Origin: an uncultured Phycisphaerales bacterium | GTDB taxonomy: Bacteria; Planctomycetota; Phycisphaerae; Tepidisphaerales; Tepidisphaeraceae | Direction of reading: 5' to 3' | Length of the DNA stretch: 64,000 nucleotides | Assembly (NCBI GenBank): GCA_963755915.1 | Contig: CAVWLP010000002.1 | Location: 192,001-256,000 of the forward strand | Shown: piece by piece, positions 23,701-54,815 of the stretch | Layout: the number at the start of each line of letters is the position of its first letter | Position numbering within the stretch: position 1 is the stretch's first letter | The notes under the pieces: generated by a model | What the model saw: only the letters and a program-made list of their open reading frames with translations | Databases searched by the model: none | What the model was told of the DNA's origin: nothing | Translations under genes and position numbers: made by a program

Positions 23701-23740
23701 TCAGGGAAGCCCCGGCTTTGGGAATAGGAGAATTTGCTTA
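23701..23740. promoter_or_regulatory. Candidate response-regulator box pair
   Basis: Primary TAGGAGAATTTGCTTA (23725-23740) and secondary TCAGGGAAGCCCCGGC (23701-23716), 24 bp apart. Confidence 0.6.
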
Positions 23741-23781
23741 TGCTTTGCATGTGGGTGTCTCTAAGAAGCAGGCATTATGCT

Positions 23782-24270
23782 TTAATCAGGCCTATAAACT
23801 GCGACAGTCCGCATGCGGCTATCATGGCGCCGCCAATACGAATCCACTGCTTTGTTTGATGCGAATCGTTGAGTTGAGAGGCCCAGGGCGATGCCGATGC
23901 CATCGAGAATTGCGGTGGCGCAAATGAAGTCAATCGCGTAGTCGACTTCGATGGACACTAATCGCAATTCATCGTCGCCTGCCAGTCGAATCCGATCCGA
24001 TCCACAGGCGCAGCGACTATCCAGTTCCGAAGTTGTCCATTGCCTTCCGCAGGCCCTGCATTGCATTTCCCAGGGCAGCGTCGTCAGTTGAAGTGCGACA
24101 CTCATCGACCCTTGTTCCTGCATGACGGCATTCCAGGCCCACTGCATCGAATGCGGTTCGATAGCTCGCATGGCCGCGGTCCGGATATGGACGCGTCGCA
24201 ATACCGCACCAGCCGGCACATGTTGCCGGGCTAAGTCCCATATCGCGATTGCTATTGACAGCTCATGCAT
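23782..24270 (-). CDS. hypA: Hydrogenase nickel incorporation protein (with ~50-aa C-terminal extension)
   Basis: N-terminal 'MHELSIA', CRAC...CACG zinc site, 'ELRLVSIEVD'. Confidence 0.85.
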   Translation of the reverse strand: MHELSIAIAIWDLARQHVPAGAVLRRVHIRTAAMRAIEPHSMQWAWNAVMQEQGSMSVALQLTTLPWEMQCRACGRQWTTSELDSRCACGSDRIRLAGDDELRLVSIEVDYAIDFICATAILDGIGIALGLSTQRFASNKAVDSYWRRHDSRMRTVAVYRPD

Positions 24271-24754
24271 GACACGCCCCTTGTTTTCGCAAGAACCGAA
24301 CGGTTATGTTCGCGACATCGTGCACGACTTCACGCAACGCGACTCGAACGGGGGACGATAATTTGCATCCGAAAGAGAAATCTGATCCACCGACGCTGAA
24401 GAGAATTGCGCGGGGGGAGCAATGATAAAGGTCGCGTGCCAGGCGAAGTATTTCGTCGGGGGTTTGATGATGTCCGATCGTTTTGTTGCGGCTTTTGCGG
24501 TGGCGAATGATGCGCTTCTTCACCTTGCCTGGGGCAAGTTGAAAATCGGCATCGATAAAAATGACAAGATCCGCGCGGCTAACACTCTCTGCCAATTCTG
24601 GTAGCAATTGGGGTAGCGTGAGCACCGAGGCGAAATCGGGCGGCAATTGATCTTTAAGTCGGCGCGCGGCAGCCCAGCCGACGCCATCGTCACGCCGGAG
24701 AATGTTGCCGTACCCAAGGATGAGCACGGGAGGATCATTCTCGCCGAAGCTCAT
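24263..24754 (-). CDS. hoxW: Hydrogenase maturation endopeptidase (HoxW/HycI family)
   Basis: 'ILGYGNILRRDDGVG', 'VIFIDA', 'HHQTP'. Overlaps the hoxH 3' end. Confidence 0.8.
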   Translation of the reverse strand: MSFGENDPPVLILGYGNILRRDDGVGWAAARRLKDQLPPDFASVLTLPQLLPELAESVSRADLVIFIDADFQLAPGKVKKRIIRHRKSRNKTIGHHQTPDEILRLARDLYHCSPRAILFSVGGSDFSFGCKLSSPVRVALREVVHDVANITVRFLRKQGACHA

Positions 24755-26157
24755 GGACAACCTTGCCGCTTGAATTAAGGAGTTCGATATGCAGCGGCAT
24801 CTGCCCCAAGGCGTGCGTCGAGCACGAGAGACACGGATCGAAGCACCGTATCGTCGCCTCCACCCGGTTCAGCGCCCCTGCGAAATCTTATTGCCCGAAA
24901 CGTAGCGCTGGGCCGTCTGCAATATCCCGCGGTTCATCGCCAGGTTGTTATGCCCCGTCGCGATGATCAGATTCGCCCAGACGATCAAGCCGTTGTCGTC
25001 GATCCGGTAATGATGGATCAGCGTCCCACGCGGCGCCTCGGCGACCCCGACCCCTTCGCTTTGGTTCGGCCGCGCCGCGCTCGCACCTTCTTATCGAGAA
25101 TCTTCGGATCGCTCAGCAGTTGCTGCATGATCTCAAACGCAAAAATGATTTCGATCAGCCTGGCATGATGATAATGAAACGAGCTCAGCACCGCCCCGCG
25201 CTGAATTTGGCGAAACTCCGCCCACTCCTGGTCGGCGATGGGCGTTCCGCAGTGGTCGATCAGGTTCAGCCGCGCCAGCGGCCCCACCCGGTAAATGCCC
25301 TGCGGGTAGCCGAGCTTCTTGAAGTAGGGGAACTTCATGAATGTATAAGGCTCCGCCGCCTCGGCGATCAACTCCATGTATTTTTTCGGGTCATGCCGAT
25401 CGACAATGATCTCCCCCTTCGAATCCACAACGCGCAGCCACCCGTCATAATGTTCCAGCCCGCCGCTGTCGGTCACCAGCCCCATGAACAGCGTCGGAAA
25501 ATTCGCAAACGCGGCCGCTTCCCCGCTGAATCCCTCCGCGATCCGCTTGTACCACGCCAGCGTGCGCGTCGCGATGTCCAGCCCTTCCGGCATCATCGCC
25601 ATCAGCTTGTCCCGGGCGGCCACGTCCAGCGGTTTATTCACCCCTCCCGCGACATCCCAAGGCGGATGAATCTTCTTGCCACCTAAAATCTCAATAACCG
25701 TCTGCCCAATCTGCCGGACGCGGATTCCATCCCGCGCCAACTGCGGATTCTCCTTGAAGACGCCAAACAGATGCCGCCCAGCCGGATCGGCATCAAACCC
25801 CATCAACAAATCCGGCGAAGACAGATGAAAAAAGCTCAGGGCATGCGATTGCACAAGCTGCGCCAGGTTCATGATCCGCCGCAGATTCGCCGCTGACTCC
25901 GGAATCTTCACCGACAGCAAATCGTCGCAAGCCTTCGCCGACGCCGTCAGATGACTCACCGGGCAAATCCCGCACGTCCGCGCCGTCAGCGACGGCATCT
26001 CCGTCATCGGCCTCCCCTCGCACAGCTTCTCAAACCCGCGGAACTGCGTCACATGAAACTTCGCATCGGTGACGTTCCCACTATCATCCAGTTGGAGCGT
26101 AATCTTCGAGTGCCCCTCGATTCGCGTCACCGGGTCAATCAAAATCTCGCGTGGCAT
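24735..26157 (-). CDS. hoxH: Group 3d [NiFe]-hydrogenase large subunit (frameshifts at ~24890-25080)
   Basis: 'DPVTRIEGH', L1 'RTCGICPVSH'. L2 'DPCLSCSTHALGQMPL' plus a cleavable tail ending at TGA 24735, read manually. Confidence 0.9.
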
Positions 26158-26190
26158 AAAACCTACTTTCCCAACACTACTTTTCTAGCC

Positions 26191-26739
26191 CTACTTTCCA
26201 AATCTAGTCATCGTCTCCGGATGCGGCATCCGTCCCGCCAGCAGCTCACCCACCACATAAAAAATCGTATCTGCCGATGGTGGGCACCCCGGCACAAACA
26301 GATCCACTTTCACCACCTCATGAACCGGCCGAACCCGATCCAGCAGCACCGGCAGATTCATCGTCGGTTTCTGTTTCTGAATCTCCGTATTCTCAAAATA
26401 AGATCGCTGAAAAACCGACTCGACGGTAAACGGATTCCGCATTGCCGGCACATTCCCCGTCACAGCGCAATCCCCCAGTGAAACCAGGATTTTCGTGTGC
26501 TGCCTGATCTTCTGGATCTTCTCGATATCCTCATCCGTGCTGACCGACCCCTCCACCAGCGTCACGTCGACTTCATCAGGAAATTCCTTCTGATCCACCA
26601 GCGGGCTATAAACCAGGTCCATCAGGGGGATAAGGTCCAGCAGCCGCTGGTCGAGGTCCAGAAACGACATGTGACACCCCGAGCACCCATCGAGCCACAC
26701 CGTCGCAACTCGCGCTTTTTTGGTCGTTTCCGCGCTCAT
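26191..26739 (-). CDS. hoxY: Hydrogenase small subunit
   Basis: '[11 protein letters not shown]', 'GDCAVTGNV', 'PGCPP'. Confidence 0.92.
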
Positions 26740-27455
26740 TGGTTGTTCCCTCTCATCCGCGTGAGATACGGCAGGAAATCCTTGTCCTTCTCCATCTCCG
26801 AAACCGCCGTCCCCTTGCGCGTCAGCGCACCCGTCGGGCAAACCGCGACGCATTTGCCGCAGCTCGTGCAGGTCTGCGAATCACCCCACGGCTGGTCGAG
26901 GTCGATCACCACCCTCGACGCCACGCCGCGCCCCGCCACGTCCCACGTATGCGCTCCTTCAATCTCATCGCAAACGCGCACACATCGCGTGCACAGCACG
27001 CACCGGTTGTGATCCAGCCGGAACAGATCGTGCGACGAATCCATCTTGAGCTTTGGATACAGATATGGAATCTCAAGGTGCGTGATCCCGGTCTCGCTCG
27101 CCAGGTTCTGAAGATCGCAATGACCGTTGGAAACGCACACCGAGCAGACGTGATTCCGCTCCGAGAAAAGCATCTGCACGATCATCCGCCGATAGTTTTG
27201 CAAGCGAGGCGAATTGGTCGTGATCTCCATCCCCTCAGTCACCTTCGTCACGCATGCCGGCAGGAGCTTGTTGACTCCCTTTACCTCCACCAGGCAAAGC
27301 CGACACGCCCCCCACGTCGACAGCCCCTCCAGAAAGCAAAGCGTCGGCACCGCGACCTTATTCTGCTTGCAGACATCCAGGATCGTCTCATCAGCGCGCC
27401 CGCTGACGTCCTTGTCGTCCACCTTTAACGTCACTACCGCTGTCGCAGCGCTCAT
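26736..27455 (-). CDS. hoxU: Diaphorase Fe-S subunit
   Basis: 'PTLC...GACRLC', 'HVCSVC...C', two [4Fe-4S] motifs. Confidence 0.92.
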
Positions 27456-29099
27456 GAGCGTATCTCCGCTAAAATGGGCAGGGGCTTGCGCGATGCATAT
27501 TCGTCCGCGCACAGAAGTTCGTCATATTCCTTGCGGAAATATCGCAGTGTCGTCAGAACCGGGTTCGGCGCTCATCCCCAGCCCGCACAAGCTCGTGTGC
27601 TTCACCATGTCGCACAACTCTTCCAGCAGCGCCACGTCCCGTGCCGTCGCCTTCTTCTCGATGATCTTCTTTAGCAGATCGTGCATCTGCACCGTCCCCA
27701 CTCGGCACGGAATGCACTTCCCACACGACTCAGTCATGCAGAATTCCATGAAAAAGCGCGCGACGTCGACCATGTTCGATGTCTCGTCCATGATGATCAT
27801 CCCCCCCGATCCCATGATCGACCCCACTTTCATCAGCGAGTCGTAATCGACCGGCATGTCCAAAAACTGTTCCGGAATGCACCCGCCCGACGGTCCGCCC
27901 GTCTGCACCGCCTTGAACTTCTTCCCATCAGGAATCCCCCCGCCCATCTCAAACACAATCTCCCGCAACGTCATCCCCATCGGCACTTCGATCAGCCCGG
28001 TGTTATTCACTTTCCCCGCCAGCGCAAAGGTCTTGGTCCCCTTGCTCTTCTCCGTTCCGATGCCGGCATACCAGTCGCCGCCGTTGCGGATGATCGGCGC
28101 GATATTCGCAAACGTCTCCACGTTGTTGATCAGCGTAGGCGCATCCCACAGCCCCGACTCTGCTGGAAACGGCGGCCTTGGCCTCGGCTGACCTCTCTGC
28201 CCGGTAATGCTGGCAATCAGCGCCGTCTCCTCCCCGCACACAAACGCTCCCGCCCCAAGTCGAATCTCAATTTTCAAACTGAGCGGCGTGCCAAAAATAT
28301 TCGCGCCCAAAACCCCCTGCCTCTCCGCCTGCCGGATCGCGACCTTCAATCGCTTCACCGCTAGCGGATATTCCGAGCGCACATAGATATATCCCTGCGT
28401 CGCCCCCACTGCATACGCCGCGATCGCCATTCCTTCCAGCACCCGATGCGGATCGCTCTCCAGCACGCTCCGATCCATGAAGGCCCCGGGATCCCCCTCA
28501 TCGGCGTTGCAGATCACATATTTCGTCGTCGATTTCGCCTTCGACACCATGCTCCACTTCAGCCCCGTCGGATATCCCGCCCCGCCCCTTCCGCGCAGAC
28601 CGCTTTTGGAAACCTGTTCGGTCACTTCCGCGGGCGTCATGGTCGTCACCGCTTTAAAAAGCCCCGCATATCCATCCGCCGCGATGTATTCCTCGATCTT
28701 CTCCGGATCGATCTCCCCCGAATTCTCCAGCACGATCTTCTTCTGCCGCTTGAAAAACGGCACATCCGTCCGGCAAACCAGCCGCTGCACCGACTTGTCC
28801 ACAGAAATCCCCCCCACAATTTCCTTCGCATCCCCCGGCTTTACACCCTGATACATCACATTCTTCGAAGAAACCGAAACCAGCGGCCCCGCCGCGCACA
28901 ATCCCATACACCCCACCCCCTTCGCCTTGCATTTCCCCTCCAGTCCCGCCGCTTTGATCTCCCCCTGCAACGATTCCAGCACCTGATCGCTCTGCGACGA
29001 CAAACACCCCGCCGCCACGCACACACGCACATGATTCGGGCACGCCTCGCGCGACTGCTTCTCCGTCTCGGCAATCTTTTCAAGCTCATCGAGCGTCAT
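27452..29099 (-). CDS. hoxF: Diaphorase NAD/FMN subunit (frameshift near 27570)
   Basis: N-terminal thioredoxin-like 2Fe-2S domain, '[13 protein letters not shown]', '[10 protein letters not shown]', '[10 protein letters not shown]'. The tail '[11 protein letters not shown]' is in another frame. Confidence 0.9.
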
Positions 29100-29595
29100 G
29101 GCTCACCTGCTTCTCTACCCGACCAATCAGATCCGCGCTGGAGGTCTTTCCGATTACCGCCCCATCCAGCACCGCCGCCGGCGCCAGCCCGCAAGACCCC
29201 AAACACCGCGCCGTCAAAATCGAAAGCTCCCCATCCCCCGTCGTCTCCCCCGCCTTCACCTTGTACTTTGCTTCCAGCGAATCCATCAATTCAGTCGCCC
29301 CCTTGATGTAGCACGCCGTCCCTAGGCACACGACGCACGTATGCTTCCCCTGCGGCTTCAACATGAAGTGGTGATAAAACGTCGCCACCCCATACACTTT
29401 GCTCAGCGGCAGATTCAGCGACCCCGATACAAACCGCATCGCCGTCTCATCCAGATATCCAAACGATTCCTGTGCCGTGTGAAGCGTCTCGATCAGGCTG
29501 TTCCCCGCATACCCATGCCGCCTCATCGTCGCATCGACAATCTTCCACCGCTTGTCCCCCGACGGCATCGCCTGTTGTTTTGCTGGTGCGATCAT
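29086..29595 (-). CDS. hoxE: Bidirectional hydrogenase NuoE-like subunit
   Basis: 'VYGVATFYH', 'CLGTACY', '[10 protein letters not shown]'. Start 29595 or 29616. Confidence 0.9.
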
Positions 29596-29771
29596 GGCCT
29601 TCCCGTCACTTTCCAATAAAACCGTGATCCTCAGTTCGCGATACCATACTTTTGTAGTTGCACAATTCCAATACTTCAGCGTTCCAACAACACATCAATT
29701 CACGCTTACCTGAATCACGCTTGAACCGAATCATTGCGACGCATCCTATCGAACCGTTTATTCACTTCGCT

Positions 29772-29836
29772 TCAGGAAAATCCCCGCCTTTTTCTTTAAG
29801 GGTTAACACCTATGCCCAAATCATTCGCTATCCCGA
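29772..29836. promoter_or_regulatory. Three candidate regulator boxes in the hoxE/PFOR divergent promoter
   Basis: TCAGGAAAATCCCCGC (29772), TAAGGGTTAACACCTA (29797) and TCATTCGCTATCCCGA (29821), spaced 25 and 24 bp. Confidence 0.6.
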
Positions 29837-29913: not shown

Positions 29914-33551
<3,638 letters not shown>

Positions 33552-33555
<4 letters not shown>

Positions 33556-42295: not shown

Positions 42296-42332
42296 AGCGC
42301 CATCCATTAAATCACCTTCAACTTTCTTCGCA

Positions 42333-44966: not shown

Positions 44967-44979
44967 CTACGCCGCTCCC

Positions 44980-45387
44980 ATGAACACCACCAAACAACCT
45001 CACACCGGATGGATGAAGCTTGCACTTCGCGCACAAATCTGCACGCAGTGTCATCCGGCAGATCCTTCGGCAGAACCCGACCCTCGCTCATGCGAAACGA
45101 ACTGCGCATTTTTCGTCCATTTATCCCGGTTGGCGCGCCTGCTGAAGCGCTATCAGAATAGGCCGCCAAACGGGTACGAAGAATTTGCCATTCACCTGCT
45201 GCGTGAGTCTGGGGGAAATTCGGGTTCAAAGGCAGTTCTCGATTACGCGGGAGATGCGTTGGCCGTCCTCGAAAAAATCGCCGAGCTGACTGAACTGCCC
45301 GCGGTTCAGGATCCGCAGCATGACTGTATCCGTCGCGATCTCGCACTGACGCAGTTGCAGATCCACCCTGAAGCGAGGCCTTCATGA
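44980..45387 (+). CDS. Cys-motif hypothetical protein
   Basis: 13 bp after hppA; 'ICTQCH...CETNCAFF'. Confidence 0.6.
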   Translation: MNTTKQPHTGWMKLALRAQICTQCHPADPSAEPDPRSCETNCAFFVHLSRLARLLKRYQNRPPNGYEEFAIHLLRESGGNSGSKAVLDYAGDALAVLEKIAELTELPAVQDPQHDCIRRDLALTQLQIHPEARPS

Positions 45388-45493
45388 TCCCTCATATCTT
45401 CCGCGGCAGGGTCATGGTCACCGTAAGCGGATATGCCTCGGGCGTGTAAGACCAACCAAAAGTAGAAAACCTTCCGGTCAGGGTAATTATCGC

Positions 45494-46311: not shown

Positions 46312-46391
46312 GTTATCCGCGGCAACCGTGACGGCTCCTCAGAAATTGACGTTCAAGTTTCGGAACGTCGAAGACAGCAGCCCCCTTGTCA

Positions 46392-47099
46392 TCAGCCAAG
46401 AAAATCGTCCGACGTGTGGTCTACCAGGTCTTCACGGCGGTGCCGTTTCGTGAAATTCAGTTTTTCGATCCATGAAATCCACTCATGGATCCCATCCCCA
46501 GTACTCGCGGAAAGTGCATGAATTTCAGTGGAGGGATTAATTGATCGAACGTCTTTGCGGAAGACATTGCTGTCGAAATTCACGAGGGATTGCAAATCAG
46601 TCTTGGTCAGCAGCACCGCGGAGGAGGCTACAAGAAGCTTGTGATATTCTGCGGCCTTGTCGTCTCCACCGCTCACCGCAAAGACCGCTACAGTCGCGTC
46701 CTGCCCCAAATCCTGAAGCGGCGCCAGCCCACCGGCGGTTTCGATCAATACAGTATCGAACTTGTGCAAATCCAGTTTTGTCACGATGGGCCAGATCAAA
46801 CTCGCTTTCGGTATCGCGCCCTCGATGGCGGTAACAAAGCCGCACAAATCTCGTAATCGCTGCACGTCCCTGGCCGGTGCTGGATTGACCACCACCACCG
46901 CAACGCGCCGCGGCGCTGACAGCCGTCTTAGGGTCTGCACAATCAACTCGGTTTTGCCCGATCCGGGAGGTCCGACAATTCGAAGGCCCACAGCGCTCGC
47001 GCAACTTAATGCCTGTCGAATTAAGGCGCCGGCGGGAAGATGATGGATCCGCGGCAAATCGGCGTTTGGGTTACGGGCATCTTCATGAGACTGTGTCAT
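46392..47099 (-). CDS. HypB-like G3E GTPase, atypical (paralogue 2)
   Basis: P-loop GPPGSGKT, 'GGDDKAAEY', TKTD, 'LSASTGDGIHEW'. The CH and C metal ligands are absent. Confidence 0.75.
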   Translation of the reverse strand: MTQSHEDARNPNADLPRIHHLPAGALIRQALSCASAVGLRIVGPPGSGKTELIVQTLRRLSAPRRVAVVVVNPAPARDVQRLRDLCGFVTAIEGAIPKASLIWPIVTKLDLHKFDTVLIETAGGLAPLQDLGQDATVAVFAVSGGDDKAAEYHKLLVASSAVLLTKTDLQSLVNFDSNVFRKDVRSINPSTEIHALSASTGDGIHEWISWIEKLNFTKRHRREDLVDHTSDDFLG

Positions 47100-47827
47100 A
47101 AGGCACTCTTCGTGGTTGAGCCATCGGTGGATCGCGACCAGCTCACGACGGGATGGAGTATTCGATCAGCGCGGCAGCGGGCGCAATTCGCCAGCCGATG
47201 CGCCTCCATCCATTCGAGCCAGTCTTTTATGCCTTCCCCGGAATGAACCGAAACACAAAGGATTGAGAGGTTCGAGTTAATTCGTTTGATGTCAAGGGCA
47301 AAAGCTTGCAAATCAAAGGTGACGAACGGCAATAGGTCGATCTTTGTCAACAGGATCAAATCAGAGTGGCTAACTAGAATGGGAAAATCATTCGCTTTAT
47401 CGTCGCCGCCGGCAGCGCTGAAAACAGCGACTCTGAGATGCTCACCGAGGTTAAATTCTCCAGAATCGATCGAATTGCCATCGGCCTCGATCAGCAGAAA
47501 ATCGAGGCCGGAGAGGTCGACCCTGGGCAATGCATCACGAATACCTAGCGCATTGGCACGGTTCGTATTGATCGCCACGGCAGGATAGCCATACCGACAA
47601 ATCTTAGCGATGTGCCGGTCTGCCGCAGCGTCGCACATCATCACTGCGATACGCAGTGGCGGTGCAAGACGCAGCATCAACTCTTCAATGACCGAAGTTT
47701 TCCCCGATCCAGCCGGACCGATTATCGAAATCACCGTGACGCCCGCCGCATCGAAAGCTTCACGATTGGCGCGCGCGGCCTGTTGCTCAGCCAGCTCGGA
47801 TCGATCGGGGATTTTCTGTGAGTTCAT
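47096..47827 (-). CDS. HypB-like G3E GTPase, atypical (paralogue 1)
   Basis: 'AARANREAF', GPAGSGKT, 'FNLGEHLRV', 'GGDDK', 'TKIDLLPFVTFD'. The CH and C metal ligands are absent. Confidence 0.8.
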   Translation of the reverse strand: MNSQKIPDRSELAEQQAARANREAFDAAGVTVISIIGPAGSGKTSVIEELMLRLAPPLRIAVMMCDAAADRHIAKICRYGYPAVAINTNRANALGIRDALPRVDLSGLDFLLIEADGNSIDSGEFNLGEHLRVAVFSAAGGDDKANDFPILVSHSDLILLTKIDLLPFVTFDLQAFALDIKRINSNLSILCVSVHSGEGIKDWLEWMEAHRLANCARCRADRILHPVVSWSRSTDGSTTKSAL

Positions 47828-47830
47828 GGC

Positions 47831-48106
47831 CTAGCCCCCTTTTTTCGCTGATGGCGGCTCTGAGAGGGCATTGTCGCCGGTCGTTGAGTGATCGGACGTG
47901 TGGCTCGCGCAATTCCTCCAAAAGATCAATTCGCAAGCGATTAACGCACCGACGGGTAGCATTGGTAGAAGAAGCTCCGGATTGTTCTTCACGACGATGA
48001 GGCCGACCAAGAGTGCTGCAACAGTAATTGTTCGACGAAGATAAGCCTCAATTCGAGACCACAGCGATGGCCTGGGCCCGGCGGCGCCTTGGTGCAACGA
48101 ATGCAT
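47831..48106 (-). CDS. Small 2-TM hypothetical protein
   Basis: Two hydrophobic helices; ends 3 bp before the HypB-like gene and contains its RBS. Confidence 0.5.
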   Translation of the reverse strand: MHSLHQGAAGPRPSLWSRIEAYLRRTITVAALLVGLIVVKNNPELLLPMLPVGALIACELIFWRNCASHTSDHSTTGDNALSEPPSAKKGG

Positions 48107-48286
48107 CACAAACGGGCCTCGGCGTCGCAGCAACTGCGAAATTCCGCGTGCGTGTCCAAAGGCGCCCCGCCGCCAACGCGGGCGCGGAGGGCGGGGTGAG
48201 ACGGTTCGGGCGCTTCGCAAGACCCGCCGAACGGGAATAATCTCGCCAGATAAATTGAGTATTCTTCGCATAAAACACCTTCGGGT

Positions 48287-48451
48287 TTACAAGCGGCTGA
48301 CGAGCAACTCCTTCTGAAAGATGATTTCCTTGGGCAAATCTCCCGCCAGCTTCAGGAACAGCTCTTCCTGACCCAGGATTTCCGCTTTGAACGCTTCCAG
48401 ATCGACGCTCTGCACGATCTCAAAATCGGCATCGCTCAAATCCAACCCTTC
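48287..48451 (-). pseudogene. pckG: Probable C-terminal remnant of GTP-dependent PEP carboxykinase
   Basis: Manual translation: EGLDLSDADFEIVQSVDLEAFKAEILGQEELFLKLAGDLPKEIIFQKELLVSRL*. No start codon. Confidence 0.6.
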
Positions 48452-48456
48452 CGAAT

Positions 48457-49065
48457 TTACGCCAGTTGCCCGGGGTCGATGACAAGGCCTATCACTTTCC
48501 GCTTATCCAGCTTCTTCAGCTCCTCCGGAATGTGTACATGCATCGCCAGCGAAATGTTCGCCACGCGAAATCCCTGCATGGTAAGCAGCATGCTGGTGGG
48601 CGTCTTCCCCGTTCGGGAAACGCCCACCAGCACCGCATCTGCCTCCGCAACAGATTCCAATCCAAGGCCGTCATCGTGTTCCAGCGCAAAGGTCATTGCA
48701 TTGATGCGACCACAAGAGGCGCCGTCCACCCGATGCAGCCGCTGATGATCCGACATCACCTCCACCCTTGCGGCTTCAGCCAGAAAATCCACCGCCGGGC
48801 CGGTCAAATCCCAACATGGGATATTTTCCTTCTGGCACCGCGCGGTGATCTGCTTTTTCAGATCTCTCGAAACCACCGCGTGAAAAACAATTCCCGGCCG
48901 GGTGGAAACAGCGTCAAGGGAGGGAGCAAGGCGTTTGGGCTCATTGACGAAGGGCTTCGTCAACACCTCAAAAATCCCAGCCGGGAATTGCGTGAGGAAG
49001 CTCGTCACCATGTGCCGCGCAAGATTTCCCGTCGAATCCGAAAGGATATAAAGCGGGATCGGCAT
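48457..49065 (-). pseudogene. ppsR: PEP synthase/PPDK regulatory kinase-pyrophosphorylase (DUF299), 3'-truncated
   Basis: 'ILSDSTG', 'INAMTFALEHDDG', 'LVGVSRTGKTPTS'. Stops at 'DPGQLA*IR' with no usual C-terminal part in any frame I could read. Confidence 0.75.
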
Positions 49066-49335
49066 GTCCGGCTCGTGTTTGACGCGCTTTCTCATCGGGG
49101 TAACCGTCTTCATGATGTTTCGCTCACATCCTTCGTATACGATTCAGCCGATACAGTTCGTGGCAGCCCCAGACCCCCATACGGGCAAGAACCGCCACTC
49201 CAACGACGGCTGCTAAAATCCCTAATGTCTTGAATATGGCGAACCTCCATCGTTAAACAACTGCACGCTGTGAACGGCATTCCTTCCCATCCACACCGTC
49301 CTGAGAATTATCGAATCGCCAGCAGCCGCCGAATA

Positions 49336-49375
49336 TCGGAGCGAACCCGCCTTTCTGCGTAGGGGAATTCCCCGA
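49336..49375. promoter_or_regulatory. Candidate regulator box pair in the ppsR/kinase divergent promoter
   Basis: TAGGGGAATTCCCCGA (49360-49375) and TCGGAGCGAACCCGCC (49336-49351). Confidence 0.7.
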
Positions 49376-49425
49376 CGAGTCCTCGCCGCCTTGATGTACA
49401 GATCGAATCGACTAAAACTTCCGCA

Positions 49426-51301
49426 ATGCCCCAAAAGCAAAGAGCGGCCCCGTCCGCCGGCGCAAGCGATTTCGCTTATTCATTTTATATTTCAAAAACG
49501 GGCAAGATTTCATGGGATTGGATTGCCGGGCCGTTTATGCAGATCACCGGTCATCCGTCCGACGCATTCCAAAAGGGGGGCTTGCAACCCTTCATCTATC
49601 CCAAGGACAAGCCACTACTCCACGGTCGCACCGCCGCTTTGCTCGCGGGTCAAGGGGATGTGCGCGAATATCGGCTCATCACGGCCGGTGGACATCTGAA
49701 GCGAGTCCGTGATTTTGCCCAGCCGCTGCGCAAGGAGCAGGGCGGCGATCTCGTGATATTCGCAGCCGTCCAGGACATCACTGCCGGGAAGCGCGTCGAA
49801 GGCGAGATGCGCCGCATCGCCTCGATCATTGAGAATTCCCAGGACGCCATCATCGACATCAATCTCGACGGCGTTATCGTCAACTGGAATCGCTCAGCCG
49901 AGCGGATTTATGGTTACTCCGCCCAGGAAGTTAAGGGGCGCACCATTTCCATGCTGGTTCCGGCCAATCAAATGAATGAGATCACGCGCATACTCGCGCG
50001 GGTGCGGCGGGATGGTTCCATGCCGCGCACGGAAACACAGCGTATCCGCAAGGATGGAACGACGATCTCCGTAGCGCTCACTGCGGGACCAGTCTATGAT
50101 GCCGCTGATCAGCTCGTGGGCGCATCGCTCATCAGTCGGGACATTTCGGAATTGAAACGAGCGGAATCCGCCCTCCAGGAAAGCGCAAGAAAAACCGAGG
50201 CCATCCTCGATACGATGGTCGATGGCGTCATCACAATAGATGAACGCGGGATCGTCGATTCCTTTAATGCCGCCGCGGAACGCTTATTTGGATACGTTCC
50301 TTCCGAAGTAATCGGACAAAACGTCAAAATGCTGATGCCCGAGCCATATCACGGCGAGCACGATCAATATCTCCTGAACTACCTTCGCACGGGAAGAGCG
50401 AAGATCATCGGCATCGGGCGCGAAGTCGTCGGCAAAAGGAAAAATGGTTCGATATTCCCCATGGACCTTGCCGTGAGCGAGGTATTTCTCGGCCCCAGAA
50501 GGCTTTTTACCGGAATCGTCCGCGATTTGACCGAACGCAAGCGCCTGGAACGCCAGATCCTGGAAATCAGCGATCGCGAACAGCAGCGCATCGGGCAGGA
50601 TTTGCACGATGGGCTGGGCCAGCAACTCGCGGGGATCGGATTCCTGAGCAAATCGCTGGAGCAGCGGCTAACCAAAAAATCCGCGCCCGAATCCGGCGAT
50701 GCGCGTGAAATCGCCGATCTCGTGTCGGATGCCATCGCCCAGGCGCGGGATGGCGCACGGGCTGAACCCCGTTGACATGTCGGCGACCGGGCTCATGTCA
50801 GCCCTGCGCGAACTTTGCAGCACGATCGAGCACACGTTCCGGATCAAATGTGAGCTGGCATGCGATGATCCCGTGCTTCTGGGTGATGGGGCCGTCGCAA
50901 CGCACCTGTATCGCATCGCCCAGGAGGCGGTGAACAACGCCATCAAGCACGGGCAGGCCAGAAGTATTGGTGTTGTCCTGAAGAGGGCGGGAGATACAAT
51001 TACAATATCAGTCCGGGATGACGGCGTTGGGTTTCCCGATGTGCTCCCGGAAAAAAAAGGAATGGGTCTGCAAACGATGCGCTATCGCGCTGCTTTGGTT
51101 GGTGCGACCCTTTCGTTTTTGCGGATTCCTTCGGGCGGGACACGTGTGGATTGCTCCGTGAAAGAGAGTGATTCGGCAGTCCCGGGCTATGTTTATGGCA
51201 AAACCTTCCTCAAAGTTTCCTCAAATGAATCAATCTCCAAAATTGGACCCAAAGCCGTCCGCAAAGACCGCTCCACGAAAAAACGTCTTCGTCATCGATG
51301 A
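49426..51301 (+). CDS. Triple-PAS sensor kinase with FixL-type heme-PAS and HisKA_3 core (frameshift near 50745)
   Basis: Third PAS 'GQNVKMLMPEPYHGEHDQY...IIGIGREVVG'; H-box 'IGQDLHDGLGQ'; 'RIAQEAVNNAIKH', 'DDGVG', 'GMGL'. Confidence 0.88.
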
Positions 51302-51917
51302 TCATCCGGTTCTGCGGCAAGGTCTCGCCCGCCTCATTAATGACCAGAGTGATCTGGTGATGTGCGGCGAAGCCGATTCGCCCGTCGAAGCGATGCGATT
51401 GCTTCCCTCGGCCGGCGCCGATGTGGTCATCGTCGATCTTACTCTGCGCGGCGGAGATGGGCTGGAACTGTGCAAGCAAATCCGCGATCGGTTTCCCAGG
51501 CTGCCGAGTCTCGTGGTTTCTATGCACGATGAGAGCCTTTACGCCGAACGCGCACTTAAGGCCGGCGCTTGCGGCTACGTGATGAAACAAGAGCCTCAGG
51601 AAACCGTCATCGCCGCCATTCGCAAAGTACTCAAAGGGGACGTTTATCTAAGCGAAAAAATGTCTGCCAAATTGCTCCGCAGCTTTTCCGGGCCAAAATC
51701 GGATACCGAATTGGCACCTCTGGACCGTCTAACGGACCGCGAACTCGAAATCTTTCGCCTCATAGGCGATGGGCAAAGCGTTCGCGTGATTGCCGAGAAA
51801 CTTTTCCTCAGTACAAAAACAGTCGAGGCGCATAAGGAACATATCAAGCAAAAGCTCAATTTGAACAGCAGCAATGAGCTTCTCCAATACGCCATTGAGG
51901 CCAGACCGCGAACATGA
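51225..51917 (+). CDS. NarL/LuxR-family response regulator
   Basis: 'VIDDHPVLRQG', 'IVDL', 'SMHDE', 'YVMK', HTH 'LTDRELEIF...LFLSTKTVEAHKEHIKQKL'. Start uncertain. Confidence 0.93.
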   Translation: MNQSPKLDPKPSAKTAPRKNVFVIDDHPVLRQGLARLINDQSDLVMCGEADSPVEAMRLLPSAGADVVIVDLTLRGGDGLELCKQIRDRFPRLPSLVVSMHDESLYAERALKAGACGYVMKQEPQETVIAAIRKVLKGDVYLSEKMSAKLLRSFSGPKSDTELAPLDRLTDRELEIFRLIGDGQSVRVIAEKLFLSTKTVEAHKEHIKQKLNLNSSNELLQYAIEARPRT

Positions 51918-51952
51918 ATGCTGCACCCAGTCTTCTGGCCACGCAGACGGCG

Positions 51953-51992
51953 TAGGAGAATCCGCCTAGTTTAGAAGCCGAATATCCCCCGA
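51953..51992. promoter_or_regulatory. Candidate regulator box pair upstream of small protein copy B
   Basis: TAGGAGAATCCGCCTA (51953-51968) and GCCGAATATCCCCCGA (51977-51992). Confidence 0.7.
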
Positions 51993-52044
51993 TTGATACG
52001 TTCCCTGCGTTGCCCCATACCTGGGGTAAACTGCAGGAGTCCCC

Positions 52045-52284
52045 ATGATTCTCCTCTACAAAAATGTCAGCTGCCCGAGCTGCAAATCACATCACGATCT
52101 TTGGAGCAACGAACGGATCTCGGGCATAAGGATCCGGGCGCACGATTTTATTTGTCCGTATACGGGCGAAAGAACGCATTGGCGGCCCGATGTATTCGCC
52201 CATTTAATCTCCGCTGCTCCCGCAAACGCGGTTTCGCTTCTGCCCCGCCTTGAAGACCAAATGGTATTGAGCAAGGAATCGTAA
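52045..52284 (+). CDS. Small Cys/His protein of unknown family (copy B)
   Basis: AGGAG RBS; paralogue of 35427..35657. Confidence 0.8.
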   Translation: MILLYKNVSCPSCKSHHDLWSNERISGIRIRAHDFICPYTGERTHWRPDVFAHLISAAPANAVSLLPRLEDQMVLSKES

Positions 52285-52444: not shown

Positions 52445-52978
52445 TTAATCAGAACCTGCGTGATGAAGCATCGTGCAGCCGCATTGCATCTGATGCTGCT
52501 CAACTCCGGGATTCGAGTCTACGGCAATGTCTACAACCAACGGCCGCACCAGTCGGAAATAATCCGAAAACCGAATCATGAAAACGTCGGTGTGCGTGCC
52601 GGCATTGAAGGCGATATGCCCTTCATTCATCAAGTGGTGATCGAGAAATGTTTTCATCCCGAAGAGGTTACCAAAGGGCGGCGCCGCGCCTTTCTGACAG
52701 CCCTCGAATTGATCCCGGAATTCCGATTCTTCCGCCAACCGGACCACGCGGGCGCCGGATTGAACTTTGAGTTTGTTTAGATCGAGCCGGACTGTCGCGG
52801 GAACAACCGCGATAGCCAATCGCCCGTCCATCCACACGACTACTGATTTGGCCATATACTTTCCGGGCACATTTGAGGCCTGGGCGACCTCCTGAGTTGT
52901 AAAAACGCGTGGATGGTTGATCGTGCCGAAGGAAACTCCTCCGCCGCCAAGAAACTCTCGAATTCTGCGGGTAGCCAT
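52445..52978 (-). CDS. YbaK/EbsC (tRNA-editing fold) family protein
   Basis: 'HPRVFTTQEVA', 'MAKSVVV', 'LAEESEF', 'GAAPPFGNLFG', 'FNAGTH'. Confidence 0.85.
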   Translation of the reverse strand: MATRRIREFLGGGGVSFGTINHPRVFTTQEVAQASNVPGKYMAKSVVVWMDGRLAIAVVPATVRLDLNKLKVQSGARVVRLAEESEFRDQFEGCQKGAAPPFGNLFGMKTFLDHHLMNEGHIAFNAGTHTDVFMIRFSDYFRLVRPLVVDIAVDSNPGVEQHQMQCGCTMLHHAGSD

Positions 52979-52996
52979 GGTGTCTCCTGTTTGAGC

Positions 52997-53956
52997 CTAG
53001 TTTGATTGAACGAAGGATGAGGTTTGATTTTTTGGTCGAATTACTTCCACCGAACAACGAGCGGCGGTCGCAACCGTCATCGAAAGACGGCGCGGGATAA
53101 ATAGATCGCCATCCAATATCTCAGCGCCAAGGAAGATGGAATCTGCGCCCCACTTCTCGGCTTCATCGAGCAGTATCTGGCTGGGTTCACCAGAATATAT
53201 TTGCGGGACAGCTTGCAGACCTGCTTGATTCAATTCATGTACCGCCTTGTGAAGTATTTCGGACAACTCGGCACGCCATTTTTCCTCAATCGACGAGGGT
53301 AGCGCTTCTTCCGTTACACAAAACGGACTGGCGTCAATCTGTCGGCAATCCATTACGCCGACGACACGGGCTTCTGTGCCCGAGGGCCAGGTTCTCGCAC
53401 TAACCGCATGCACTGCGTTCCAAGCGGCAGTTGAGATATTCATGCCGATTAACAGACGGATCGGTCGTTCCTGAGAATGGAGGTGATGTCTGCCAATTCG
53501 CACCGAGCAATTTACCCCACCAAGTACATTGTGCGATACACTGCCTTGCATAATCCGGCCAAGCAGAGAACGCCCATGCGATCCCACTACGATCAGGTCC
53601 GGACTCCAGGCGTGTACTTTTCGCATGATCGCTGGTCCGGCTTCGTCAACCCAACACTCCGTCTTAATGCGCCACCCCGGAAAATCTGCGTGTAATCGAT
53701 CAGCCGCTTGAGCGGCGAACGCCTCAGCCTCATGAAGTTGTCGGCTACTGCGCTCATCTATTACCGCATCGTCTGCGCCGGGCCCGTGTAAACCTCCGGA
53801 CGTGACCGCTAGCGACGCTTGAACAAAATGTCTCGCCCCTTCGTCTGCCACTGTCAGGACCGCCACGTCAGCATCCGCAGGCAATCCCGCCCTTCGTAAG
53901 TCGACAATCGCGGCATCGGAACACTCTGAGCCATCATATGCGATGAGAATTTTCAT
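52997..53956 (-). CDS. Tandem universal stress protein
   Basis: 'KILIAYDGSE', 'LIVVGSHGR...GSVS', second domain 'RLLIG...ARCSVEV'. Confidence 0.88.
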   Translation of the reverse strand: MKILIAYDGSECSDAAIVDLRRAGLPADADVAVLTVADEGARHFVQASLAVTSGGLHGPGADDAVIDERSSRQLHEAEAFAAQAADRLHADFPGWRIKTECWVDEAGPAIMRKVHAWSPDLIVVGSHGRSLLGRIMQGSVSHNVLGGVNCSVRIGRHHLHSQERPIRLLIGMNISTAAWNAVHAVSARTWPSGTEARVVGVMDCRQIDASPFCVTEEALPSSIEEKWRAELSEILHKAVHELNQAGLQAVPQIYSGEPSQILLDEAEKWGADSIFLGAEILDGDLFIPRRLSMTVATAARCSVEVIRPKNQTSSFVQSN

Positions 53957-54718
53957 AATGGTCCTCCATTAGAAAAAAGATTCTGCTCCCGTTCACGCTC
54001 ATTGATCAGTGGAATGACGCAACTTACCATTTCATCAATAGTCAGATCAGCCGCATTCAGTGTCATCGTGAATCCTTCTGGCGAGATCACTTTTCCTGGC
54101 CAAAAGCGACGAAACAATTCGTTGCGCCTTTTTTCAGTTTCGGCAATTTGAGCGGCTGCTTCATTAAGGCCAATCCGCCCGCGCTCCGCTACATACTTGA
54201 TTCGATGCTCCAAGGAAGCGACGAGGCGAAGATGAATGCCCCCTGAAATTCCCGCAGTGATGAAGTTCCCGCCTTGGCCAACGATAATCGCATGACCAAT
54301 CGCGGCAAGGCCGTGAATTACCAAGACCACTTGTTTATGCGCGGGATTCCAGCAATTCAGGTGGACTTGCATTTGCGGAGAGGCCGTCTAGAAACTTGAC
54401 AAACCAATTGTGAGAATGTTCTGGAATCGATTCGATGACATCTGTTGATATTCCTGACTCCTGCGAAACTTTTTCAATTAATTCGCGATCCCAGGCACGC
54501 CAGTCTTCCTGGCCTTCCGAACGCAATCGCTCGGCCAATCGATGTGAAAAGGAAATCGCCCCCGCGCCTGGCTGCCTGCTGACCGTAACGAACGCTCGCG
54601 TCGGGCGCATGATCGCCGATGCTGACGGCTCAAAATTCCACGTCTGAACGGCGGCTTTCAGAGCCCTTTCGGCTGCCTCGAGTCCCGGCTGCGCTGAATG
54701 ACCAAATCCCGATGCCAT
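53953..54718 (-). CDS. Cytidylate-kinase-like family protein (frameshift near 54360)
   Basis: 'FVTVSRQPGAGA', 'WDRELIE', 'AIIVGQGG', 'LRLVASLEHR'. Confidence 0.75.
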
Positions 54719-54775
54719 GGCTGCCTCACTGGTATTCACCTGTTCTATTTTTGGCAAAGATCGAAGGCGAAAACA

Positions 54776-54815
54776 TCGGAGTGTTGCCGGTTATTCGTGT
54801 AGGAAGATTTACCGA
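54776..54815. promoter_or_regulatory. Candidate regulator box pair upstream of the CMK-like/USP/YbaK operon
   Basis: TAGGAAGATTTACCGA (54800-54815) and TCGGAGTGTTGCCGGT (54776-54791). Confidence 0.65.

Follow-up and report, generated by a model that had tools for sequence, protein, structure and literature searches.

DosR, the regulator of the DosS/DosT-DosR (DevR) system, controls a fermentative hydrogenase in M. smegmatis. At DevR promoters a primary box that is conserved and a secondary one that is degenerate are described as being bound cooperatively, divergent promoters share boxes, and a primary plus a weak promoter-proximal site is documented at -42.5/-63.5 (PMC3177182, in the sections cited here). 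In S. meliloti, the FixJ footprints on fixK cover a distal region as well as positions -57 to -31, and a CSNAATWT element is reported at -33 of fixK promoters (PMC4999443, sections cited). In staphylococci, the oxygen-responsive PAS/HisKA_3 kinase NreB senses O2 via a Cys-ligated [4Fe-4S] cluster, and its partner NreC, a NarL-class regulator, binds a GC-rich palindromic region (PMC8139620, sections cited).

The window analysed here, i.e., the whole stretch of 64,000 nucleotides, belongs to the genome of an uncultured planctomycete (G000). An earlier note had proposed that a 16-bp palindrome, paired with a weaker gene-proximal site, marks six promoter regions of a DosR-like, oxygen-responsive fermentation regulon. 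The six primary 16-mers and the seven partner sites were all found in the window sequence at the coordinates that it gave (Table 1), and domain annotation and the gene order of relatives agree with the gene sets that it named behind them. The palindrome consensus is TAGGnGAATTyGCyGA and that of the partner TCGGrG-N4-GCCC. Six of the partners are offset from the palindrome by 24 bp and the one at 29772 by 25 bp; a centre-to-centre distance of 24 bp is no whole number of helical turns, unlike the 21 bp of DevR. The boxes at 42333, 49360, 51953, and 54800 are covered by short-read contigs without any listed difference, from four soil-metagenome runs of one study that is possibly the source sample. 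Among RNA runs, none was found to contain this DNA.

Table 1. Predicted regulatory elements and genes of the module (window positions).
Feature	Position	Strand	Remarks
Composite element, unk169-unk175-hypF operon	partner 23701-23716; palindrome 23725-23740	-	predicted -10 AATACT 23672-23677
Two-way element, hoxE (-)/PFOR (+)	partner 29772-29787; palindrome 29797-29812; partner 29821-29836	-/+	
Two-way element, ACS (-)/hppA (+)	palindrome 42333-42348; partner 42357-42372	-/+	hppA -10 GATGCT 42396-42401
ACS side of the 42333 element		-	-10-like TTTAAT 42306-42311; probable ACS start ATG 42295
Element, PpsR-like gene (-)/kinase (+)	partner 49336-49351; palindrome 49360-49375	-/+	leftward -10 GATAAT 49307-49312
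Element upstream of a 79-aa ORF (small79)	palindrome 51953-51968; partner 51977-51992	+	
Element upstream of the CMK-like/USP/YbaK-like operon	partner 54776-54791; palindrome 54800-54815	-	composite score 18.2
unk169, unk175, hypF	23136-23645, 22594-23121, 20135-22393 (span 20135-23645)	-	
hypA	23782-24270		
hoxEFUYH and hoxW	24263-29616 (hoxW 24263-24760)	-	NAD-linked [NiFe] hydrogenase with diaphorase part; maturation protease HoxW
PFOR, DHODH-like, adenylate kinase	29914-33555, 33552-34574, 34627-35415 (span 29914-35415)	+	
ADP-forming acetyl-CoA synthetase (ACS)	39586-42295	-	GNAT tail; split into three window frames by assembly deletions at 40314 and 41911
H+-translocating pyrophosphatase (hppA)	42423-44966	+	breaks near 43638 and 44342 (assembly deletions)
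PpsR-like kinase/pyrophosphorylase	48457-49113	-	regulator of PPDK/PEP synthase
Sensor histidine kinase	49426-51301	+	three PAS (third FixL-type, haem-binding), HisKA_3, HATPase_c
Response regulator	51225-51917	+	REC + GerE (NarL/FixJ class); proposed reader of the boxes
CMK-like protein, tandem USP, YbaK-like protein	52445-54757	-	CMK-like break 54338 (assembly deletion)

The claim that the box stands out from the background holds for the full 16-mer and fails for the loose pattern. For TAGG-N8-CCTA with at most two mismatches, the window shows no enrichment (86 matches vs 122.4 +/- 12.1 in shuffled sequence, with 100 of 100 shuffles reaching 86), and the enrichment resides in the complete 16-mer. 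When a matrix made from five boxes scored the sixth over the 13.2 million positions of the 6.63-Mb genome, 23725 ranked 3, 42333 ranked 4, 49360 ranked 7, 51953 ranked 15, 54800 ranked 607, and 29797 ranked 25803; judged by the primary box alone, the first four are thus strong and the last two weak. These two are backed by predicted orthologous sites: a two-sided one for 29797 between PFOR and hypF-hox in G012 (41129), G004 (46208), and G001 (51900), and one for 54800 upstream of the CMK-like gene in G011 (26371). With the six-site matrix, five of the six best genome matches lie inside the 31-kb module, and a matrix made only from relatives (24 sites, six other genomes) places 42333, 49360, 23725, and 51953 at ranks 1-4 in G000. 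A score of at least 20 is reached by four positions of G000, all within the module, and by one in the reversed genome; a score of at least 16 is reached by only 22 of the 13.2 million positions. The sole strong box outside the module lies upstream of PPDK at C2:825971 and has no conserved counterpart in G004, G001, or G011.

The motif is also conserved upstream of orthologues: 10 of 12 same-genus genomes carry the composite, i.e., the palindrome with a partner exactly 24 bp away, upstream of the same genes in a shuffled gene order. Six same-genus stretches hold 24 strong sites, three to five in each, upstream of ACS, hppA, the PpsR-like gene, small79, unk169, PFOR|hypF-hox, and the CMK-like gene; since they were found with a G000-seeded matrix and the relatives are kin, these counts overstate independence, and the real sample is about 10-11 promoter families. 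Of these 24 sites, 22 have a gene-proximal partner at a distance of exactly 24 bp. The proposed pairing stands except at the ACS promoter, which has no partner site. Orthologous boxes precede unk169 in G012, G002, G003, G008, G010, and G001, and the PpsR-like gene in G011, G005, G006, G001, and L068; small79 has an orthologue with its own box in G011, G005, G006, and G001. The order PFOR/DHODH-like/adenylate kinase recurs in G012, G004, and G001, and the layout of the ACS/hppA element in G020, a member of another genus. The pattern AATCRG-N20-TAGGNGAW occurs in three to six copies in 10 of the 12 same-genus genomes (backwards control, 0) and in 0-1 copies in 28 genomes outside the genus. The two genomes without it, G007 (61% complete) and G009 (92%), also lack the kinase orthologue, ACS, and PFOR (the PFOR search had G004 as positive control); these absences span the whole module and, thus, do not single out the regulator. 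Further, oxygen-related box targets in the relatives are the fused ccoN-ccoO cbb3 oxidase of G008 and G010, a 4Fe-4S protein that G002 shares with these two, and the NikR_C protein of G004.

The elements keep a fixed register with a predicted promoter. In 39 of 46 sites a -10-like GATAnT (N-A-T-N-N-T) starts 24 nt beyond the partner, which is immediately followed by TT, and a degenerate -35 (TTnnnn) lies 17 bp before the -10. This hexamer places the partner at about -43.5 and the palindrome at about -67.5, which is, as far as the predicted -10 goes, the layout of an activator-dependent promoter. Three G000 promoters do not show N-A-T-N-N-T at the expected place, and the kinase's own promoter has only a poor -10 candidate, TACAGA. 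On the ACS side the palindrome itself would lie at about -41.5, with a -10-like hexamer 21-25 nt away in all 10 genomes or stretches inspected and the start codon 6-11 nt behind it.

This geometry leaves room for a rather unlikely reading in which the palindrome is the regulator's site and the partner (AAATCGG...GCCC) either bound by a second factor or part of the core promoter, e.g., as an atypical -35 or a contact of UP type. Conservation in the partner is highest at AAATCGG (CCGATTTT on the coding strand, about -39 to -32), letters that overlap the -35 position and match seven of the eight letters (hand count) of the fixK CSNAATWT element (PMC4999443, sections cited); moreover, the inner half of the partner is poorly palindromic and the 24-bp spacing is off helical phase. 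Nevertheless, TCGGrG-N4-GCCC aligns with T-[AC]-G-G and CCC of the palindrome itself, FixJ footprints both fixK regions, and degenerate proximal sites of this kind are used by DevR (PMC3177182, sections cited), which argues against this reading.

The module itself encodes a candidate reader of the boxes together with a sensor kinase. The kinase is split into two frames in the window by an assembly deletion near 50742, behind which a short-read contig inserts GC, and its orthologues are intact frames of 602-625 aa. FixL haem domains are matched by its third PAS at E 1.8e-36 to 5.6e-30, and the alignment takes in the HD and IIGIGR stretches; identity in the aligned stretch is about 50% (E 1e-34 to 1e-36). 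A domain search found no GAF domain, and cysteine is absent from the first 449 residues. The DosR-like picture of the earlier note thus needs correcting at the sensor, which is FixL-like and unlike DosS/DosT. The kinase core does not resemble FixL, and the NCBIfam FixL model covers only profile positions 104-249 of 485 (193.8 vs a cut-off of 850). The regulator as a whole is closer to DevR (best solved-structure match, E 5.8e-30) and NarL (2e-29) than to FixJ (9.8e-13); it is 25.7% identical to FixJ and stays below the NCBIfam FixJ cut-off (72.3 vs 255). Its recognition-helix stretch reads TVEAHK, against TVDVHR in Verrucomicrobiia and TVEVHR in FixJ.

This regulator is the best candidate reader of the boxes. 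A box lies within or ahead of its operon in G000, L068, five relatives, and Verrucomicrobiia. In the five relatives (G012, G004, G005, G011, and G006), a box heads a single string of ACS, kinase, and regulator genes, and the Tepidisphaeraceae contig L068 has two boxes (27.5 and 26.3) between the PpsR-like gene and the kinase-regulator pair. Four Verrucomicrobiia loci (L116, L117, L124, and L125) carry a TAGGGG-N4-CCCCTA box with 0-2 mismatches, which in the three with annotated ORFs (L116, L117, and L124) lies upstream of a string of pocR/AraC, haem-PAS/HisKA_3 kinase, and regulator genes. The boxes might instead be read by another factor encoded elsewhere, e.g., of LuxR/NarL type, the local two-component system being merely a member of the regulon. 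The genome surely holds many GerE-type regulators, the co-absences in G007 and G009 are module-wide, and in the Verrucomicrobiia operons a PocR/AraC regulator, too, is encoded next to the box. We consider such a reader unlikely: apart from the haem-PAS kinase and the REC+GerE regulator, no protein is shared by the box loci of the planctomycetes and Verrucomicrobiia, the palindrome has a size that fits a GerE dimer, and its sequence is similar to that of a proven FixJ site. A tblastn search (E<=1e-8, >=35% identity) of the 35-60-kb stretches of six relatives gave no match to the window's GntR gene (36570-37394).

We therefore favour the reading that the boxes are sites of the local regulator, which together with the haem-PAS kinase probably forms a FixLJ-like low-oxygen switch that activates fermentation genes; most likely, a two-part signal at H2-producing fermentation promoters is read by the neighbouring haem-based O2 sensor and its regulator. 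O2 on the FixL-type haem PAS would hold the kinase off, and falling O2 would let it phosphorylate the regulator. A regulator dimer would then take the strong palindrome near -67.5 and help a second dimer onto the weaker partner near -43.5, while at the ACS promoter the palindrome itself would act at about -41.5. Since the partner abuts a poor -35 17 bp before a good -10, we propose a class II mode of RNA polymerase recruitment. As a palindrome, a single box can be used by both promoters of a divergent pair (hox|PFOR, ACS|hppA, and PpsR-like|kinase). The output would be a programme from pyruvate to acetate and H2, made up of PFOR, the ADP-forming acetyl-CoA synthetase, the Hox hydrogenase, and the hyp/hoxW maturation genes, and further of the H+-pyrophosphatase, adenylate kinase, the PPDK-regulator homologue, USP, and two unknown proteins; the kinase-regulator operon itself is probably among the activated targets. 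The interpretation of the earlier note is supported overall, with binding, activation, the oxygen signal, and the transcription start sites as the parts that we infer.

Since CO and NO are further ligands of FixL-type haem, O2 is the most likely of several possible signals. Repression by the regulator, or a signal other than O2 (NO, CO, or redox), is a further reading, the direction of control and the ligand being deduced from homology alone. We consider it very unlikely, given sites that lie upstream of, and not over, the predicted -10 and start, a -35 that is degenerate as at activator-dependent promoters, and targets that are classic low-oxygen genes (hydrogenase, PFOR, USP, and, in relatives, the cbb3 oxidase). 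The chance that the elements are dispersed repeat copies or accidental likenesses is negligible, for although the window has no excess of the loose pattern, this reading is contradicted by the leave-one-out ranks and ranks 1-4 of the relatives-only matrix, by orthologous conservation at a fixed -10 register among the 12 same-genus genomes surveyed, and by the confinement of the elements to intergenic DNA upstream of functionally coherent genes.

Compared with the described systems, the locus resembles NreB-NreC in its PAS/HisKA_3 kinase, NarL-class regulator, and palindromic site. It differs in a kinase that matches haem PAS domains and has no cysteine in the stretch mentioned above, and nitrate respiration genes are the targets in staphylococci. 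It shares with DosS/DosT-DosR the HisKA_3 haem kinase, the NarL-class regulator, USP genes in the candidate regulon, and a promoter layout in which a primary box is joined by a weaker proximal one and divergent promoters have boxes in common, whereas the haem is held by PAS here and by GAF there, and a 16-bp box with 24 bp between centres contrasts with an 18-bp DevR motif spaced 21 bp apart, a comparison of length and spacing. With FixL-FixJ of rhizobia and Caulobacter it has in common the haem-binding PAS sensor, the REC+GerE regulator, and a similar recognition-helix stretch. The planctomycete matrix scores 16.2 on the FixJ site of the S. meliloti fixK promoter, the second best match in 50 kb of pSymA, 71-86 bp before fixK, and 13 of the 16 letters of that site equal the genus consensus (hand count). 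The box type is thus not undescribed, but we found no published description of the regulon itself. Both promoters combine a distal box with a proximal element near -33 to -35, the gap between the two being 11 nt (about one helical turn, hand count) wider here than at fixK. Unlike in FixL-FixJ, the kinase core is HisKA_3, the lineage is Planctomycetota/Verrucomicrobiota, and the regulator would seem to act directly on metabolic operons, no FixK-type intermediary being seen in the module. The candidate system of this soil planctomycete thus appears to be related to the FixL-FixJ switch of rhizobia but to have another set of genes under its control.

The module holds six 16-bp palindromic boxes and seven weaker partner sites on their gene-proximal side, exactly where the earlier note had placed them, and the offset between partner and box is 24 bp for all but the partner at 29772, where it is 25 bp. 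The loose form TAGG-N8-CCTA under which the motif had been presented is not enriched when up to two mismatches are allowed, with 86 matches in the window versus 122.4 ± 12.1 in shuffles. In leave-one-out matrices, built from five boxes and used to score the sixth among the 13.2 million positions of the genome (6.63 Mb), the boxes ranked 3 (23725), 4 (42333), 7 (49360), 15 (51953), 607 (54800) and 25803 (29797), so the last two are weak taken alone. Five of the six best genome matches of the matrix made from all six boxes lie in the module. A relatives-only matrix, made from 24 sites whose independence is incomplete because they were found with the matrix of the present genome (G000), ranks the boxes 42333, 49360, 23725 and 51953 as numbers 1 to 4 in G000. 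With this 24-site matrix, four matches score at least 20, every one in the module, versus one in the backwards genome, and nine score at least 19, versus two. Contigs of four short-read soil-metagenome runs, which belong to one study and possibly to the source sample, span four boxes, and no difference is listed at the boxes. No RNA run is listed as covering 42001-52000 of the window.

According to Pfam and NCBIfam, from which the gene layout was taken, the module begins with hypF and the genes of a 175-aa and a 169-aa protein (unk175 and unk169), followed by a box and by hypA, hoxW and hoxHYUFE. The next box precedes PFOR, a DHODH-like protein and adenylate kinase; then, behind GntR and IS630, come the ADP-forming acetyl-CoA synthetase (ACS), a box and the H+-pyrophosphatase (hppA). 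Two cobW/hypB-like GTPases, a PpsR-like kinase/pyrophosphorylase, a box, a PAS-PAS-PAS-HisKA_3-HATPase kinase and a REC+GerE regulator follow, and the module closes with a box, a 79-aa ORF (small79), a YbaK-like protein, tandem USP, a CMK-like protein and a last box.

Coordinates of the features in the window and of the box beyond the module (boxes by position)
Feature	Coordinates	Strand	Remark
unk169	23136-23645	-	own box
Box	23725
hoxH	25018-26157		match covers N-terminal part only; looks truncated
Box	29797
DHODH-like protein	33552-34574	+	NCBIfam PRK07565 subfamily, 435 bits; translationally coupled to PFOR
GntR	36570-37394
GntR/UTRA regulator + unknown	36570-37789
IS630-type transposase	38328-39277		two ORFs
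Several contigs end or diverge	39352-39540		one contig skips 39389-39500
Bases added by short-read contigs	behind 40314, 41911, 43638, 44342, 50742, 54338
Box	42333
GTPase stretch	44963-48271	-	between hppA and PpsR-like gene; two cobW/HypB-like GTPases, four ORFs without family matches
Region of the predicted PpsR-like leader	49114-49306	-	leader of about 187 nt; Pfam match of the gene ends at 197 of 256, looks truncated
Box	49360
Kinase	49426-51301
Regulator	51225-51917
Box	51953
small79	52045-52284	+	Cys-rich; own box
Box	54800
ABC transporter	55962-58031		also looks truncated
PPDK box	C2:825971-825986		locus L038, 6971-6986

Single- or two-base assembly deletions sit at the frame breaks, twice in ACS, twice in hppA, and in the kinase and the CMK-like gene. 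Since the short-read contigs add bases at these breaks, the breaks are assembly deletions and the genes intact; the orthologous kinases are open frames of 602-625 aa. Such errors may partly explain the completeness (81%) and contamination (8%) figures of G000.

Some neighbors of these genes deserve mention on their own. In each relative looked at (G012, G004, G001 and G005), the DHODH-like gene is likewise coupled to PFOR and adenylate kinase comes next, and the GTPase pair adjoins the module in six of six relatives; in L068, a Tepidisphaeraceae MAG contig, PEPCK and a DUF2721 protein stand behind the PpsR-like gene in its place. IS630 and GntR are found inside the module in G000 only, without counterparts in the stretches of six relatives. 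The read depth of one run (X1) is about three times higher over IS630, and this, together with the ending, diverging and skipping contigs, suggests a repeated, possibly polymorphic insertion. Neither Pfam nor NCBIfam nor the ESM Atlas assigns the 79-aa and 169-aa proteins to a family; the matches are unnamed clusters only, mostly from Planctomycetota and Acidobacteriota. Both genes are adjacent in G011, G006 and G001, and we consider their products candidate new low-oxygen response proteins.

Orthologues of the kinase are encoded in five genomes of the same genus (G011, G012, G004, G005 and G006; 67-71% identity) and, in pieces, in a sixth (G001; 63-81%). The 35-60 kb around each of the six carry 3-5 strong sites, which add up to the 24 of the matrix. 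None of the conclusions depends on the unpublished genome G014. Gene order varies among species, with a single ACS-kinase-regulator string in five relatives and hppA, the PpsR-like gene, small79 and unk169 relocated, and the sites stay upstream of the same genes. The composite pattern AATCRG-N20-TAGGNGAW has 3-6 matches in 10 of 12 same-genus genomes, versus none for the backwards control, and 0 or 1 match in 28 genomes of other genera. In G000 it has four, two being module sites and the other two looking like coding-region chance matches common to G001. The two same-genus genomes without a match, G007 (61% complete) and G009 (92%), also lack the kinase orthologue, ACS and PFOR (with G004 as positive control for PFOR), so module, switch and signal travel together; this evidence from co-absence is module-wide.

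Twenty further matches of the pattern were fetched with their flanks. The box stands before ACS in four (L046, L050, L055 and L058), before unk169 in four (L044, L048, L049 and L053), before the small79-unk169 pair in L057 and at hppA/ACS in G020, a genome of a different genus. Other neighbors are a 295-304-aa 4Fe-4S protein (L042, L047 and L052), a NikR_C protein (L041) and a fused ccoN-ccoO cbb3 oxidase, 75 bp away on the partner side (L045 and L054). The match in L056 (AnmK/ClpS) may be due to chance, and L039, L040 and L043 show no informative neighbor gene at the box. The fused oxidase, from genomes G008 and G010, joins CcoN and CcoO in one ORF of 774-775 aa (L045, 651-2978, minus strand; L054, 686-3010, minus strand); tblastn did not find it in G000, whose assembly is 81% complete.

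Of the 24 sites from relatives, 22 have the TCRG of the partner beginning exactly 24 nt ahead of the palindrome, and two have it on the opposite side; the best-kept letters of the partner are AAATCGG and then GCCC 9-12 nt inward. A relaxed composite pattern gave 50 matches when the window was taken together with all fetched stretches, and 46 of them remained after setting aside one too close to an end and three chance matches left out beforehand (window 15872, G004 28047 and L052 3416). An N-A-T-N-N-T hexamer starts at nt 24 past the partner in 39 of the 46 (GATATT 14, GATAGT 7, GATAAT 6, GATACT 6, others 6), and TT directly follows the partner in 42-46, the sites being orthologous sets among kin that amount to an independent sample of about 10-11 promoter families. 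Read as TTnnnn-17 bp-GATAnT, this arrangement gives predicted positions of -51 to -36 for the partner (centre -43.5) and of -75 to -60 for the palindrome (centre -67.5). Such predicted positions match the geometry of class II activator-dependent sigma-70 promoters, in which the activator site is centred near -41.5 and a good -10 accompanies a weak -35. A spacing of 24 bp does not keep the two sites in phase on the helix. In G000 itself, the promoters of small79, PFOR and the CMK-like gene show a partial -10 only, and that of the kinase a poor one. Transcription is predicted to start near positions 23665 (-), 29736 (-), 29872 (+), 42299 (-), 42408 (+), 49300 (-) and 52028 (+) of the window.

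The ACS side is built differently, without a partner site. In each of the ten genomes or stretches looked at, 21-25 nt separate the palindrome from a -10-like hexamer (TTTAAT, TTAAAT, CTAATA or TTAGAT), and the conserved start codon follows 6-11 nt behind this hexamer, which would put the palindrome centre near -41.5 and leave a very short leader. An ECF-sigma promoter was dropped as an alternative because a sigma-70-like -10 stands 17 bp from the TT and because the palindrome can serve promoters in either direction. As for the PpsR-like gene, about 56 nt separate the partner site from the start codon in L068, and G005 carries two tandem composite sites ahead of this gene; in G000, another assembly error or a short ORF upstream is possible.

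The only strong box beyond the module is a near-perfect palindrome of matrix rank 5 in G000, about 50 bp ahead of the called start of the pyruvate phosphate dikinase (PPDK) gene, which is likely split by an assembly error. About 130 bp downstream of this box lies a textbook TTGACA-N17-TATACT promoter, conserved in G004, indicating that sigma-70-type signals are in use in G000. PPDK would be an appealing member, given the PPDK-regulator homologue of the regulon. The loci around the PPDK match in G004, G001 and G011, with about 1.5 kb of upstream flank, show no box scoring at least 9, and in G004 none scores at least 3 in 850 bp upstream; PPDK was not found with the G000 query in G012 and G005. 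We therefore keep this unconserved box as a species-specific candidate only.

Regarding the protein that reads the box, the GntR regulator was dropped, as the stretches of the relatives hold no counterpart of it. A box leads the kinase-regulator pair at every place examined; the pair stands behind ACS in five genomes and has an adjoining box in G000 and G001. In L068, the closest named relative, whose kinase (621 aa) is 74% identical, two very strong boxes (27.5 and 26.3) lie between the PpsR-like gene and the pair. We also fetched 80 public loci with the kinase and sought boxes within 6 kb. A TAGGGG-N4-CCCCTA box, matched with 0-2 mismatches, is present in four related Verrucomicrobiia loci; where ORFs were annotated (L116, L117 and L124) it lies about 50-125 bp ahead of a pocR/AraC, haem-PAS/HisKA_3 kinase and REC+GerE string, and L125 has the same kind of box. 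No strong box was found within 6 kb in the remaining public kinase loci. Kinase and regulator are the proteins common to the box-bearing loci of both phyla, whose regulators are 48-49% identical. The three annotated strings encode a PocR-sensor/AraC regulator, a kinase of 494-495 aa and a FixJ-like regulator behind a perfect or near-perfect 16-bp palindrome, with an extra CCCCTAA half-site 3 nt after it in L117 and L124.

In the mechanism that we propose, low oxygen would free the haem and the kinase would autophosphorylate. From homology and geometry, we infer that a regulator dimer would then bind the palindrome and draw another dimer to the proximal site, which is weak and lies beside a defective -35, so that RNA polymerase would be recruited and one palindrome could drive two divergent promoters. 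The output would include PFOR, ACS (yielding acetate and ATP), the Hox hydrogenase with its maturation genes, H+-pyrophosphatase, adenylate kinase, the PPDK-regulator homologue, USP, the two unknown proteins and the switch itself, plus a cbb3 oxidase in some species.

Soil planctomycetes are mostly regarded as aerobes and, to our knowledge, almost nothing is known about how they regulate their genes. With slightly more reserve than conviction, we put forward that the haem-PAS/HisKA_3 kinase, the FixJ-like regulator and the TAGGGG-N4-CCCCTA-type box may form an old low-oxygen switch spanning the PVC group (Planctomycetota and Verrucomicrobiota). It would control metabolic operons directly, without FixK in between, turning on H2-evolving pyruvate fermentation in soil Tepidisphaeraceae-like planctomycetes and the cbb3 oxidase in some species, and two conserved proteins, the Cys-rich 79-aa and the 169-aa one, would be new hypoxia-response parts. 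Read from sequence alone, this would be a complete, testable circuit made up of sensor, regulator, box, some ten target operons and a promoter layout for which start sites are predicted, and it predicts survival of anoxic spells by pyruvate fermentation to acetate and H2. The FixJ-type box would be used far more widely, on many promoters per genome, giving a much larger natural site set for defining the recognition of FixJ-like regulators, and two unknown protein families would gain a physiological context.

The earlier note had called the regulon a candidate undescribed one. A search of the literature on FixL, hydrogenase, anoxia and fermentation in planctomycetes, and on FixL with HisKA_3/NarL, returned no description of it. 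As a kind of system, haem two-component oxygen switches with GerE regulators and tandem boxes are already known, and the box belongs to a FixJ-like type. New features are the lineage, the way in which sensor and transmitter are combined, the proposed direct control over many operons, the content of fermentative hydrogen genes and a promoter grammar that is well defined.

With FixL, the kinase shares the type of haem PAS: phmmer aligns its third PAS domain, at about residues 250-380, with PDB FixL haem domains at E-values of 1.8e-36 to 5.6e-30 (1.8e-36 to 3.5e-32 for 8js5, 1d06 and 1dp6), including the HD and IIGIGR stretches. The likeness does not extend to the kinase core, since the NCBIfam FixL model NF041777 gives 193.8 bits versus a cut-off of 850 and matches positions 104-249 of 485, the PAS part only; the dimerisation domain is HisKA_3 (Pfam PF07730, with PF02518). 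The regulator (PF00072 and PF00196) scores 72.3 bits versus a cut-off of 255 with the FixJ model NF006900, and is thus not a FixJ equivalog; among solved structures it is nearer DevR (5.8e-30) and NarL (2e-29), with FixJ far behind (9.8e-13; 25.7% identity to S. meliloti FixJ), and it aligns with DevR around the phospho-acceptor Asp. In the recognition helix, G000 has the stretch TVEAHK, Verrucomicrobiia TVDVHR and FixJ TVEVHR. Between 20 and 58 kb of the window, a scan of 42 ORFs showed no CRP/FNR-type (FixK-like) protein.

At the DNA level, the planctomycete box is FixJ-like in sequence. As far as the excerpted text of PMC4999443 goes, which compares oxygen regulation among alphaproteobacteria, the FixJ box is known from a handful of alphaproteobacterial promoters, with a consensus hard to define, and in the S. 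meliloti fixK promoter a 16-bp FixJ site was determined experimentally, with the 8-mer CSNAATWT at -33, a TAAG element near -64 and footprints that cover -69 to -44 and -57 to -31. We fetched 50 kb of pSymA and placed fixL, fixJ and fixK by tblastn and ORFs. The 24-site matrix scores this published site, 71-86 bp before fixK, at 16.2, which ranks it second among about 100,000 positions, in a comparison with one site only; in G000, 22 of 13.2 million positions score at least 16. Counted by hand, 13 of the 16 letters of the site are those of the genus consensus and 10-12 of the 16 those of the G000 boxes, and the proximal CCGATTTT agrees with CSNAATWT in seven of eight. The distal box of fixK is about 11 nt nearer the proximal element than in the planctomycete promoters.

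An NreB-type sensor, in which a Cys-ligated Fe-S cluster sits in the PAS domain as in NreBC, is excluded, since residues 1-449 of the kinase contain no cysteine. DosRST, like the system of G000, pairs a NarL-class regulator (REC + GerE) with a HisKA_3 kinase, but it holds its haem in a GAF domain, whereas the haem domain of the G000 kinase is a PAS; no GAF family is among the Pfam matches of either kinase piece. The primary-plus-secondary layout that the earlier note gave for DevR is indeed documented in the excerpted text of PMC3177182, which reports boxes at -42.5 and -63.5, cooperative binding and box sharing by divergent promoters, and describes the Dev box as an 18-bp motif in which G5 and C7 are essential. 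From what this excerpt describes, the same tandem layout, with the proximal box overlapping the -35 region, would be found here at the predicted start sites.
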